From Shigella phage vb_GEC_SH_GT, in the sequence record OR887633: a stretch of DNA of 64,000 nt; one strand, given 5' to 3'. The notes beneath the pieces are model-generated. The model searched no databases. It saw only the letters and a program-made list of their open reading frames with translations, and was not told where the DNA came from. Below, in pieces: positions 17,629 to 58,394 of this stretch (within the stretch, counting starts at the first letter, position 1; every line of letters begins with the position of its first letter). Made by a program: the position numbers and the translations under genes.

Positions 17629-18089
17629 TAGTAAAGGTCCTCAGAGTAAAGTTCTTTTTCACTACCACCGCGTTCAATACGTACTTGTCCAGCGTAAGTT
17701 GCAATAATCATTGCTTCTTCACGTGTCCAATAATTACTATATTGGTCAATAAACCCTTGGTCATCATCACAAACTTGCTGAGTAACCAATTGAGGTTTAA
17801 CTACATCTAAAACTTCTGCCATATCTTTAGAATAATGACGAGCACCTGGAATAATAAGAGTTCGTCCATCTTTTAATTTAAAACGGTTGGCTGCACAGAC
17901 AATTCGTCGTTGATACTTTTGGTTTTCATCCCAATATGCAGTCTGCCAACAAATTTCAGGAACTTCTTTCAGAATATCTTCTTCTGTGCATTTATAACCA
18001 TGCGCTTTAAATTTTTGAACAAGACTCTCCGGAGTCTCACGAGATAAAGACACATTCAGCATTTTTAAACGATTAATAAATGGGTTCAT
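17628..18089 (-). CDS. hypothetical early protein
   Basis: 153-aa ORF, ATG start. Confidence 0.5.
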
Positions 18090-40233: not shown

Positions 40234-40241
40234 TATTTATA
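40234..40241 (-). promoter_or_regulatory. late promoter TATAAATA for soc
   Basis: exact TATAAATA on minus strand inside the 3' end of the HNH ORF. Confidence 0.6.
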
Positions 40242-41073
40242 AACCATTTTCAAACCTCTTTATCATATTTATATAGTTTTCATCGGGATAACCTAGACTA
40301 ACTGCTAACTTTCTAAAATTGACATATTTAGGTTTGTTGTTATTAATCCATAATTCTCTAAGCTCTTTTTCATAATTCCATTTAAGTTGATTTCTGCGTG
40401 CAGTTTTGCTTAAAGTTTTTCCTTTAGCTTTTAAAGCTTTTTCGGATGATTGTTTTAATTTTTGAATATTTAAAACTTCTTCTATAGATAAATTATTTTC
40501 CTTTGAATACCTTATGCAAAAATCTTTTACTACGGCTATTAGGCAATTTTTGTGAGTACCTAAAATTTCTGGATTATTTTCTTCAACTAAAATTCCCCAA
40601 TATCTTCTGTAGCGAGGCATATCCCTTGAAATCCAGTCATTATACCAAAAATCAAAGTTGGAATACATGAAAGATTTTCTTTTGCGAAGAGTATCTTGGT
40701 TTATCCATTGCTCACGTTTATCAGCCCATAACTTAATAGTAAAGTCTTTCTCTAAGTCAGAAAGCTTCTTAAATTGCGAGCTATTTACTGAGGTCATTCT
40801 CTGGAATGCATTTAGCAATCCAAATCTTCCAGTTGAACATAAGAGATAGTGAACATATATGTGTTGATATATTGGGAGATATACTCTATTCCAAGGATAT
40901 ATTTTAAAATCACTATACTCAGGAAATGCGCATTTAGGAAGTATATGATGGGCTTCTGTTTTAGATTTAATGTGAGTGTTTAACTTATACTTATCTATAA
41001 TTTTTAAGTACTCATCTAAAAGTTCCCATTGCGGGAACTTTTCTTTAAGAGCAGATTTGAAATTAATATCCAT
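40237..41073 (-). mobile_element. putative HNH-family homing endonuclease
   Basis: 278 aa from ATG at 41073 (track start is TTG); TEAHHILPKC motif; basic C-terminal half. Confidence 0.45.
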
Positions 41074-41581
41074 TATCTTGACGTTCAAAATTATGTTTGT
41101 TCTTCAGGTAATAAAGTTTAAAGATTTCTTCAGCTGTAAGACCAAGACCCTGGAACATATTCAGAACGAAATGAAGAATATCAATCATTTCAAATTTAAT
41201 TTCTAACTGGTCTTGCGGAGACAAATCAGTAATTAGAGTTTCACGGCGTTCACCATGTTGAGCTTTCCAAGGCTTCCATACAGCAGATGCATCTTTTTCG
41301 CCATTGCTCATACCGCCAAGAGAAGTTAGAAGTTCGCGGAATTCATCATCAATATAATCTTTCTGATTGCGCAGCCAATCAACAACTTCACCTGCGGTAG
41401 CCAAATCATCAGGATGACGGTTATATTCAGGTTTATCTTTAGCTAAACGAACCTGTAGAGATTTCTGCATATCAAGCATAACCTGCAGCGGGTCTTTTTC
41501 ATCACCAAGAATATCCCAGTATTCATTTTGAGCTTTATCAACACCTTCGATCAAATGAGCGCATTCATTAAAATATGCCAT
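41063..41581 (-). CDS. 56: dCTP pyrophosphatase gp56 (MazG-like)
   Basis: ATG at 41581 (MAYFNEC...); sequence and position. Confidence 0.8.
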   Translation of the reverse strand: MAYFNECAHLIEGVDKAQNEYWDILGDEKDPLQVMLDMQKSLQVRLAKDKPEYNRHPDDLATAGEVVDWLRNQKDYIDDEFRELLTSLGGMSNGEKDASAVWKPWKAQHGERRETLITDLSPQDQLEIKFEMIDILHFVLNMFQGLGLTAEEIFKLYYLKNKHNFERQDNGY

Positions 41582-41641
41582 TATTTTTCCTTTCAATTCA
41601 TCAATAAGTTAAATAATTATATCATTTGAATATGTAAGCAA

Positions 41642-42430
<789 letters not shown>

Positions 42431-42434
42431 TCAT

Positions 42435-42463
42435 TTATTGCAGCAAAAAACGAATTATATAAT
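42435..42463 (+). promoter_or_regulatory. sigma70-like promoter for plus-strand small ORF
   Basis: TTATTG, 17-bp spacer, TATAAT (42458-42463). Confidence 0.4.
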
Positions 42464-42532
42464 TCTTCATCATATGTATTTGATAGTAATACTAACACGT
42501 TTTGCGATAAATATTAATTTAAAGGAGGACAT

Positions 42533-42733
42533 ATGGTACAAAAATTAATGGCACTTGTTAATGCCATCAAAGGTAATAAGAAACGTATAGCTTTTACTAT
42601 TTCTGCTATGATAGGAATTTTACTTTGGAATTTTGTTTTATCGCCAGTTGCTATTGCTCATGGCGTTAGTATTCCAGTAGTTACTCTTGATACATTCGTA
42701 GATTTAGCATTTGCTTTAGTTGGGTTAATTTAA
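42533..42733 (+). CDS. small two-TM membrane protein, function unknown
   Basis: 66-aa ORF; AAAGGAGG SD 5 nt before ATG; basic N-terminus then two hydrophobic helices; convergent with gene 61. Confidence 0.5.
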   Translation: MVQKLMALVNAIKGNKKRIAFTISAMIGILLWNFVLSPVAIAHGVSIPVVTLDTFVDLAFALVGLI

Positions 42734-43758
42734 ATCTTAGCATATTTAGATAGCCGCATTTTAGCCATTAACCCCTGGGCAATATTATTTTTCATATATT
42801 CCATAATTTGTTCAGGGGTTGCACCTTCCTTTCTAATCATATCATTAACATCTTTTGATTTCCAGGGAGATTTATCCCAAAACATAACCCTTTCTCCTGC
42901 ATCAACTAATTTAGTCATTCGTTTAATAGTGTCAGGGTGACGAGGTTCATTATCTAAAACCCACACTCGTCTATCTTTAAATGGAACAACTTCTAGGTCT
43001 AATTGACCACCCGTAATAGCTATACCATTTTCAATAAAAAGTGAATCTATAGGTCCTTCTAGAACATATACATCACCATCTTTAACTCGTTCGACTCCAT
43101 AGATTTTTGTTGCTTCAGGATAAGCTTTGATGGTGATATATTTTTGAGGAGCATCTTTCTTTAATGCGCGTCCTTGAAAAGACTCAGCTTTTCCATTAGC
43201 ATTATAAATTGGAATAACAAGACGAGGCTCGGGTATTTCCTTTTTATATGTTCCTGGTGCTATACTATTAACTAATTTAGGCCATTCAGTTGTAAACCAA
43301 AGATATTTCCATTTATCCTTTGGAATACAACGAGCTTTTACGTATTTTATAATTGGATGGTCTTCCGCCAGTTTATCCAATCTAATGCATGACGGAAGAG
43401 ATTTAATTATTTTCTTCTCGGGTTGTTTAGGAAGTTCTTTAGGTTTTTCTACTGGACGACTTTTACCTTTTTCTTTTCTTATTTCAAAGATATACTCACG
43501 ATATAAATCAGGTTCAAACTCCTTTAAATATATTCCGATTGGTGCATGATAGTTACAGTTATAACAATGAATATTTCCTTCATTATTATCACCATAATAC
43601 CATCCACGGGCTTTATTTTGGTCGGTTTTTGAATCTCCACAAACAGGGCATCTAAACCGTAATTTAAAAGTTGAACTATTATTTACTTGTGTGAATTTAG
43701 GTAAATGAGCTAATGCACGATATGCAAACTCATTATCAATCCAAGGTATTGATGACAT
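42730..43758 (-). CDS. 61: DNA primase gp61
   Basis: 342 aa; zinc ribbon (CPVCGDS...CYNC) and TOPRIM region. Confidence 0.85.
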   Translation of the reverse strand: MSSIPWIDNEFAYRALAHLPKFTQVNNSSTFKLRFRCPVCGDSKTDQNKARGWYYGDNNEGNIHCYNCNYHAPIGIYLKEFEPDLYREYIFEIRKEKGKSRPVEKPKELPKQPEKKIIKSLPSCIRLDKLAEDHPIIKYVKARCIPKDKWKYLWFTTEWPKLVNSIAPGTYKKEIPEPRLVIPIYNANGKAESFQGRALKKDAPQKYITIKAYPEATKIYGVERVKDGDVYVLEGPIDSLFIENGIAITGGQLDLEVVPFKDRRVWVLDNEPRHPDTIKRMTKLVDAGERVMFWDKSPWKSKDVNDMIRKEGATPEQIMEYMKNNIAQGLMAKMRLSKYAKI

Positions 43759-57636: not shown

Positions 57637-57644
57637 TATAAATA
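57637..57644 (+). promoter_or_regulatory. late promoter TATAAATA for plus-strand HNH ORF
   Basis: exact TATAAATA 34 nt upstream of ATG at 57678. Confidence 0.55.
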
Positions 57645-57677: not shown

Positions 57678-58394
57678 ATGAATTATAAACTAATTTATGA
57701 AAAGTTAATCTCTAATGCTAAATCTCGAAAACTTGATTGCTATACTGAATCTCATCACATTATACCACGCTGTTTAAATGGCAGCGATGATGCTTCAAAC
57801 TTAGTAGATTTAACACCAGAAGAGCACTATGTAGCTCATCAACTTTTAGTAAAAATTTATCCTTCTGAACCAAAATTAGTCTATGCTGCTAACATGATGA
57901 CAGTTTCCACGAAATACGCTAAACGCAACAATAAAACTTTCGGTTGGATTCGTCGTAAACTCTGGGAAATAGAAAAGAATAAAGAATTCTCCCAGGAGAC
58001 ACGAAAGAAAATGTCTAATGCAGTAGCTAATAAAGCAAGACTAACTTGTCCTCATTGCGGTAAATCTGGATTAAGCGGGAATATGAATCGATGGCATTTT
58101 GATAACTGCCCTAATCACCCTAATCCTAAAGTTAGACCACCGATGTCTAAAGAACACAGAAATAATATCTCAAACGGACTTAAAGCAATCGTTCTTGAAG
58201 AAACATCCTGCGAATTCTGCGGAATGATAGGCAAGAAATGCGTTATCGCAGCGCATAGAAATTTCTGCAAGAAAAATCCAAATGGACGCAAGAAAACTGA
58301 AAAGACTGGTACTTGCGTCCATTGTGGTAAAGTTACCACTTTCGGAAATTTATCAAGGTGGCATAATGATAACTGTAAATATAAACCTAGCTAA
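57678..58394 (+). mobile_element. HNH homing endonuclease with C-terminal zinc-finger-like repeats
   Basis: 238 aa; HNH motif ESHHIIPRCLNGSDDASNLVDLTPEEHYVAH; three CxxCG...WHxDNC units; opposite strand to flanking genes. Confidence 0.7.

Follow-up and report, generated by a model that had tools for sequence, protein, structure and literature searches.

A conserved opposite-strand gene beside primase gene 61 of T-even phages, with a late-promoter motif, a predicted small membrane protein as product and a possible holin-family link

Results

A plus-strand gene among minus-strand neighbours

We analyzed a 64,000-nucleotide stretch of Shigella phage vb_GEC_SH_GT (sequence record OR887633; referred to as the window, with position 1 as its first letter) with a focus on an open reading frame (ORF) of 66 amino acids (aa) that lies on the plus strand between the minus-strand genes for the Dam methylase and the gene 61 primase. 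The 601 bases around this ORF match 503 phage records at 90-99.5% identity, placing the region in Tequatrovirus as a close relative of T4. Taken as a package, the reading developed below, that of a real, late-expressed and holin-related small membrane protein, is in our judgement evenly balanced. The features of the locus are listed here, with those of the ORF and its upstream region first (nt, nucleotides).

42533..42733, plus strand: ATG-initiated ORF of 66 aa from the ORF list, orthologue of RB69ORF029w and RB32ORF030w, PHROG 2024
42506-42513, plus strand: T4 late-promoter-like motif GATAAATA (consensus TATAAATA, -13 to -6), predicted start at about 42519
42521-42528, plus strand: Shine-Dalgarno sequence AAAGGAGG, read from the sequence, with 4 nt between its end and the ATG
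42587..42658, plus strand: predicted transmembrane helix, residues 19-42 (AlphaFold2 helix 16-42; Kyte-Doolittle hydropathy up to 2.0)
42626..42676, plus strand: core W32-N33...P38...G44...P48, aligning with [Y/W][Q/N]F..xP...G..PP of three-transmembrane (3TM) holins
42686..42721, plus strand: predicted short hydrophobic C-terminal helix, residues 52-63 (AlphaFold2), preceded by a conserved acidic residue, D/E52
42730-42733, both strands: TTAA, the convergent 4-nt overlap between the TAA of the ORF and the opposite-strand TAA of gene 61
42435-42463, plus strand: TTATTG-17-TATAAT (TTATTG at 42435-42440, TATAAT at 42458-42463), judged a chance match and lying outside the gene
42730-43758, minus strand: gp61 primase; beyond it 61.1, a 61.2-like ORF and spackle
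41642-42421, minus strand: Dam methylase
41063-41596, minus strand: gp56 dCTPase

An initial annotation of this DNA had described a 66-aa plus-strand ORF amid minus-strand genes, with a near-perfect Shine-Dalgarno sequence and a stop codon overlapping that of gene 61 by 4 nt, and all three observations were confirmed. On the minus strand, the ORF list contains no ORF of at least 30 aa between dam and gene 61. A GGAGG, AAGGAG or GAGGA equivalent of the Shine-Dalgarno sequence is found in all T4-type homologues examined.

Protein-coding status and conservation

The ratio of nonsynonymous to synonymous substitution (dN/dS, Nei-Gojobori) in the plus frame of the ORF was 0.16 for Tequatrovirus (9 distinct alleles), 0.10 for Mosigvirus and 0.24 for Gaprivervirus. 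Variation was dominated by third codon positions, with 8/2/13, 6/0/17 and 7/2/12 variable sites at positions 1/2/3 in these genera, respectively. Among the six frames, the frame of the ORF had the lowest dN/dS, and alternative reading frames were excluded on this measure, the only other low value being that of an antisense frame which shares third positions. As judged from these comparisons, the ORF protein is under purifying selection.

A tblastn search returned 502 records at 80% identity or more, and 692 of the 890 matching records cover at least 80% of the query; the ORF is intact in about 500 Tequatrovirus records. Its location and its direction, convergent with the 3' end of gene 61, are shared by Tequatrovirus, Mosigvirus, Gaprivervirus, Kanagawavirus (where the homologue is unannotated), Jiaodavirus and Gelderlandvirus, and by three metagenomic T4-like contigs. 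The 4-nt overlap with gene 61 is identical in Mosigvirus, Gaprivervirus, Gelderlandvirus and the three contigs. In T4-type loci the ORF is flanked by dam or gene 56 on one side and by the primase gene on the other. In distant family members, protein identity drops to 20-30% and the W32-N33...P38...G44...P48 core remains. The check for presence or absence across T-even genomes suggested in the initial annotation was thus carried out, with the ORF being kept both in close relatives and, in syntenic position, in at least six further Tevenvirinae genera. Purifying selection together with conservation across T-even relatives supports the earlier claim of an independent opposite-strand small membrane-protein gene, and on this evidence the ORF is almost certainly a genuine protein-coding gene of T-even phages.

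Two sequence variants from these comparisons are reported separately. Many Tequatroviruses carry an insert of ~540 bp between dam and the ORF (phage 107, L002 1636-2181) that is absent from the window and from T4; its 181-aa minus-strand ORF, located immediately upstream of the gene for the GATC methylase Dam, resembles the DpnII restriction endonuclease weakly and below threshold (E value (E) 0.0045). Further, the metagenomic cluster representative P0127 is a T4-type copy with blanket C-to-T-like changes (A>V, S>F, P>L, H>Y, T>I) and probably stems from a library that had been bisulfite-treated or deaminated, not from natural variation.

Annotation status in T4 and its relatives

T4 carries the ORF at 17738-17938 (plus strand), encoding a protein 94% identical to that of the window. 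Three T4 records were checked, NC_000866, AF158101 and MT984581, none of which annotates the ORF, and no NCBI or UniProt accession was found for the exact T4 protein. According to the initial annotation, such a gene is not known from T4, which is correct for the T4 annotation, where the records omit it, and incorrect for the T4 sequence, which contains it; the statement is understandable because the T4 records leave the ORF unannotated.

Phage vB_EcoM_F1 has an entry for the exact protein of the window, under the name 'hypothetical protein F1_0032'. Relatives are labeled hypothetical (RB69ORF029w, RB32ORF030w) or, in case of phage 107, 'putative transmembrane protein'. A match to phrog_2024, annotated as being of unknown function, was obtained at E 8.1e-31, with residues 2-66 aligned to the whole profile (positions 1-65 of 65). 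RB69ORF029w, RB32ORF030w and PHROG 2024 represent the same gene as the ORF, in the same position and orientation beside gene 61 and with no structural difference, and their entries come without function, expression class or family link. The existence of the ORF is not new, as hundreds of genome entries already list it as a hypothetical protein. Searching the literature for a described gene, a transcript or ribosome-profiling evidence at this position of T4, also under the names RB32ORF030w and ORF029w, found nothing. Unrecorded in the records examined and the literature searched are the T4 omission, the conserved late-promoter signal, the breadth of synteny and the link to a holin family. Since T4 is a reference organism whose list of genes is regarded as practically complete, a conserved ORF that is missing from T4 records constitutes a concrete annotation gap.

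A conserved late-promoter motif upstream of the ORF

In the initial annotation, the ORF had been assigned its own sigma70-like promoter, TTATTG-17-TATAAT. The letters are present, but TTATTG is identical to TTGACA at only 2 of 6 positions and a consensus scan did not report the site. Sigma70-like matches occur at or below chance level in the AT-rich DNA of the window (8 compared with 13.6 expected; 31 compared with 30.8), and the T4 equivalent of the -10 element reads TACAAT. Further, the TTATTG-17-TATAAT segment is replaced in insertion-bearing relatives, in Tequatroviruses lacking dam and in all other genera, whereas the ORF and the late-promoter motif are kept. The sigma70 promoter was rejected on these four grounds, that is, the poor -35 element, chance-level matches, the T4 sequence and the lack of conservation; it is the late-promoter motif that is conserved instead.

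The motif GATAAATA begins 27 nt before the ATG and matches TATAAATA at 7 of 8 positions, deviating at -13, with the next 10 nt all being A or T. ATAAATA heptamers occur 7 times per strand in the 64-kb window, and 5 of the 7 on the plus strand sit 25-42 nt before a Shine-Dalgarno sequence and an ORF, namely at genes 34 and 36, holin gene t, the ORF studied here and an HNH-like ORF. Geometry at gene t, which encodes the 218-aa T4 holin T (15677 in the window), is nearly identical to that at the ORF: TATAAATA is followed by a Shine-Dalgarno sequence and an ATG, the latter 25 nt from the start of the motif compared with 27 nt at the ORF.

In all T4-type lineages examined, ATAAATA lies 19-30 nt ahead of the ATG, with the exception of Gelderlandvirus, where the upstream sequence TATTAAATA retains TAAATA alone; conservation was judged by presence, flanking sequence not being alignable across lineages. 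The motif takes the form AATAAATA in Mosigvirus, CATAAATA in Gaprivervirus, Jiaodavirus and three metagenomic relatives, and the perfect TATAAATA in Kanagawavirus. Within Tequatrovirus, ATAAATA is kept in three differing upstream contexts. Phages of this genus without dam have unrelated upstream sequence, yet one that contains AATAAATA, and in relatives with the 540-bp insertion beside dam, homology to the window restarts just before the late-promoter motif.

Published reviews are in line with a late promoter of this kind. Listed T4 late sites are perfect in 32 of 50 cases, 9 carry A at -13 and most others show another single deviation; T4 late transcripts occur in either polarity (PMC2988020). 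The T at -13 is poorly conserved in T4 relatives (PMC1524935). A conserved T4 late-promoter motif upstream of the ORF points to late expression, and we consider it likely that the ORF is transcribed late from GATAAATA by the gp55-dependent route, with a start near 42519. A MotA-box-like sequence, TTTGCTTTA (plus strand, 42710-42718), was rejected by eye, as its TAnnnT spacing is wrong and middle promoters have the opposite polarity.

Several further observations concern late-promoter motifs. Gaprivervirus VR25 carries two tandem divergent paralogues of the ORF spaced 8 nt apart (L005 1495-1692 and 1701-1901), one T4/RB69-like and the other similar to those of Kanagawavirus and Klebsiella phages; L015 (1759-1899) likewise contains the second copy. 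A single copy is present in the other genera that were examined in detail. Because ATAAATA stands before the first VR25 copy only, the pair resembles a two-gene late operon, an arrangement reminiscent of paired holin/antiholin genes. Elsewhere in the window, the near-palindrome TATAAATATATTTATC forms back-to-back late-promoter motifs at 57637 (plus strand) and 57652 (minus strand). The former precedes a 238-aa ORF (57678-58391) with weak HNH similarity (E 0.007), which is probably a late-expressed homing endonuclease. A 283-aa ORF at 40237-41088 (minus strand) takes the place of segF in T4, overlaps the 3' end of gene 56 and has no Pfam match; TATAAATA occurs at 40273 within its 3' end and at 40241 overlapping its stop codon, both sites lying before a 78-aa soc-like ORF.

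Predicted topology of the ORF product

Residues 1-18 of the product contain 5 lysine or arginine residues (K/R) and are followed by hydrophobic sequence; there are zero K/R after residue 18, and the protein ends in ...DLAFALVGLI. An AlphaFold2 model built on a 29-sequence alignment, with a mean predicted local distance difference test score (pLDDT) of 80.6, contains helices at residues 2-12, 16-42 (pLDDT 84-87) and 52-63. For the RB69 orthologue, TMHMM gives a single helix at 21-41 (Nolan 2006 supplement). Residues 46-66 reach a Kyte-Doolittle value of 1.86 but include two Asp, and the AlphaFold2 helix in this segment, 52-63, spans just 12 residues. The earlier description of a basic N-terminus followed by two hydrophobic helices thus holds for the N-terminus and for the helix at 19-42; it does not hold for the second helix, which is short and contains two Asp.

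Across the 29 sequences, W32, N33, P38 and G44 are invariant and P48 is nearly so, and in the widest alignment P38 remains invariant with N33 and G44 nearly invariant. The hydropathy pattern is preserved across the family. Its members have 1-8 K/R in the N-terminal flank, mostly at least 4, and with one exception their C-terminal segments are neutral to acidic. This charge distribution favors an N-in orientation. On these predictions, the ORF product is very likely a membrane protein, and its last ~20 residues could either sit at the periplasmic face or turn back into the membrane.

Remote similarity to 3TM holins

An exhaustive hidden Markov model (HMM) search of 1.84 billion representatives returned 20 clusters, all of 33-99 aa, most of them T4-type and a few from other phage-like contigs. 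Word-indexed and HMM family searches returned small proteins of 31-99 aa only, with no Pfam annotation or informative name; a few carry source names such as 'Holin' or 'DNA packaging ATPase', which have the look of automatic labels. Searching the PDB by structure with Foldseek, using the AlphaFold2 model, gave nothing (best E 5.5), and a profile search of PDB sequences gave chance matches to transmembrane helices only.

The sole Pfam family to recur was PF11351 (GTA_holin_3TM), which matched 4 of 21 family members, each on its C-terminal third. In case of a longer, 96-aa relative, the match reached E 0.002 and covered profile positions 39-116. One family member also matches PHROG 3427, 'holin', at E 5e-4. 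PF11351 takes its name from a putative holin belonging to the gene transfer agent (GTA) of Rhodobacter capsulatus, an agent with the lysis genes rcc00555 and rcc00556 (PMC3423380).

Profile-profile comparison was carried out with hhalign against an alignment of 68 PF11351 holins, for which a phage DSL-LC05 protein matching PF11351 at E 8e-22 had served as seed. For this narrow holin set, whose sequences are at least 59% identical, the ORF family gave a probability of 77%, a P value of 2e-5 and a score of 32.2 over 52 columns; against 13 holins the probability was 43.7%. None of 400 column shuffles (200 global and 200 local-block) reached 32.2, the best scoring 26, and reversed alignments scored 10.6-12.2. 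The alignment pairs W-N-F..x-P with Y-Q-F..Q-P, followed by G, a proline turn, an acidic residue and a final hydrophobic stretch. A comparison with the 81-aa 'GTA-like holin' of cyanophage Pan1, a protein that is itself below the Pfam cut-off, gave a probability of 91.6% and a P value of 8e-7.

The likeness to PF11351 consists of a hydrophobic helix with [W/Y][N/Q]F..xP, a G and a proline turn, after which come an acidic residue and another hydrophobic segment; these align with the second transmembrane segment (TM2), the PPLPP turn and the third segment (TM3) of the holins. Longer intermediates of the ORF family (96-99 aa) additionally have a holin-like N-terminal amphipathic and coiled segment. 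The ORF product differs in having one firm transmembrane helix and a short C-terminal helix instead of three hydrophobic segments. On balance, the profile evidence leans towards the ORF family being a shortened relative of the TM2-turn-TM3 portion of PF11351 3TM holins. The initial annotation had offered a holin- or antiholin-like protein, a small toxin or a superinfection-exclusion factor as possible roles; remote PF11351 similarity lends some support to the holin-like option, and the late motif speaks against exclusion and an early toxin.

Antisense arrangement at the locus

Early 61-to-dam transcripts are antisense to the ORF. A terminator scan found no intrinsic terminator-like site on the plus strand from the ORF to about 47259, so that a late transcript should run antisense into gene 61. 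The minus strand contains a terminator-like hairpin at 42570..42545, inside codons 5-13 of the ORF, with 11 pairs followed by UUUUUGU. As minus-strand RNA it has a folding energy of -16.1 kcal/mol (z -3.3), whereas the plus-strand version is no better than shuffled sequences; the Mosigvirus equivalent is unstructured. This hairpin may attenuate or process the 61-to-dam readthrough RNA.

Discussion

Our analysis suggests the following course of events for the ORF. It would be transcribed late by gp55-loaded RNA polymerase from GATAAATA, giving an mRNA with a predicted leader of about 14 nt that bears a strong Shine-Dalgarno sequence. The 66-aa product is predicted to be inserted in the inner membrane such that the basic N-terminus faces the cytoplasm. 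Helix 19-42 would be followed by a short turn and a hydrophobic C-terminal helix of 12-15 residues, located at the periplasmic face or dipping into the membrane. There, the protein could act as a late holin-family accessory that oligomerizes with itself or with the T holin system and tunes membrane permeabilization or the timing of lysis. We regard a lysis-related role as a tentative suggestion. That T-even phages including T4 carry a second late holin-family protein acting with T, RI and RIII, for instance on the trigger threshold or on lysis inhibition or its collapse, seems rather unlikely to us on present evidence.

T4 holin T can be compared with the ORF product. Besides the shared promoter geometry, both would be inner-membrane proteins with one firm transmembrane helix, the N-in orientation being predicted for the ORF product and established for T. 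The large periplasmic domain of T binds the antiholin RI, whereas the ORF product has only about 24 residues beyond its helix. No sequence resemblance between the two proteins was noticed, without a direct comparison having been run.

A number of findings weigh against a late, holin-related protein. At the promoter, the G at -13 of GATAAATA departs from the T4 consensus, and Nolan et al. (2006) predicted no late promoter before RB69ORF029w. At the level of family assignment, the window protein has no Pfam or NCBIfam match and all PF11351 matches of its relatives are sub-threshold, the best scoring 13.6-19 bits compared with a gathering threshold of 24.8; further, chance matches of similar strength were obtained to unrelated membrane proteins (a major facilitator superfamily exporter at E 0.0012 and an acetylcholine-receptor helix at E 0.045). 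The ORF product is half as long as PF11351 holins and lacks their N-terminal third as well as their basic C-terminal tail. A hydrophilic, highly charged C-terminal tail is a classical criterion for holins, and such a tail is absent here. Unlike the genes of PF11351 holins, the ORF does not lie beside an endolysin gene: no endolysin neighbor or lysis cassette was found in any T4-type locus examined, and no clear lysis cassette in the contexts of distant non-T4 relatives, where contigs are short or ambiguous. On the siphovirus-like contig of one distant relative, the 179-aa neighbor is not recognizable as an endolysin. Finally, the lysis genes of T4 already form a full set without the ORF (t, rI, rIII, e and the spanins).

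In the main competing explanation, the ORF encodes a late membrane protein with a job other than lysis, such as a membrane anchor or helper for late assembly, a shield against a membrane-acting host defence or a factor excluding late-arriving phages, and the holin resemblance would reflect only a shared helix-turn-helix membrane motif. The coding, late-promoter and membrane evidence fits this explanation equally well, the holin similarity stays below family thresholds and T4-type loci have no endolysin neighbor. Genomic context gives two additional hints: the distant 59-aa family member P0124 adjoins a gene for a RelA/SpoT-domain protein, and another distant relative converges on a large 429-aa ORF, a possible P-loop NTPase; both point to defence-type neighborhoods. 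On the other side, nothing positive favors any particular alternative role, and the holin profile similarity exceeded all 400 shuffles that preserved composition and local hydropathy. The T4 superinfection-exclusion genes Imm and Sp are early, and late expression of the ORF argues against an exclusion role like theirs. We consider a non-lysis function possible and would put no firmer word to it. As regards P0124 itself, it is encoded at 129-308 of a 2.2-kb metagenomic contig (L024), directly upstream of the 352-aa RelA/SpoT-domain protein (325-1383, E 2.5e-19). The two could form a toxic alarmone synthetase module, the contig being too short to judge.

Two explanations that do without late expression of a protein appear much less probable. 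The ORF might be an early or constitutive gene driven by TTATTG-17-TATAAT and encode a small toxin or superinfection-exclusion factor. This would be in line with the perfect TATAAT and with the type I toxin-like features of the locus, namely a hydrophobic product of less than 70 aa with one transmembrane helix and an mRNA fully complementary to the early 61-to-dam readthrough RNA. Unlike in type I toxins, polar and proline residues form a conserved motif in the product, the gene has a predicted phage late promoter, and the locus is without a dedicated antisense small-RNA gene. The promoter evidence given above stands against this explanation: the -35 element matches at 2 of 6 positions and was not reported by the scan, such matches occur at chance level, T4 has TACAAT, and relatives lacking dam or bearing the insertion as well as other genera have lost the element and keep the ORF and the late motif. 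Late expression argues against a toxin driven early by the host polymerase, and we deem this explanation very unlikely. Still less credible is conservation of DNA or RNA rather than protein, with the ORF being incidental to minus-strand signals (the hairpin, dam translation) or to a late antisense RNA against gene 61. The stable minus-strand hairpin with its U-run within the ORF (z -3.3) and a late transcript antisense to gene 61, expected as there is no terminator, agree with such a scenario. It is contradicted by third-position-dominated substitution and low dN/dS in three genera, by a protein motif that is kept at 20-50% identity, where the DNA fails to align, and by retention of the ORF in genera without dam and without the hairpin, with a strong Shine-Dalgarno sequence everywhere.

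In conclusion, a late, possibly holin-related small membrane protein is the reading that we favor for the ORF beside gene 61. Should the holin link fail, the ORF would be an ordinary conserved hypothetical small membrane protein. Its convergent stop-codon overlap with gene 61 entails a predicted late transcription antisense into the primase gene. For late membrane events of T-even infection such as lysis timing and lysis inhibition, the ORF further provides a testable lead in the form of a predicted start site, an expected topology and a family to which it may belong. If the proposed role is true, the best-studied lysis pathway of any phage would have lacked this component so far, and the ORF would descend, in shortened form, from a 3TM holin of the GTA type that has been kept beside the unrelated holin T.

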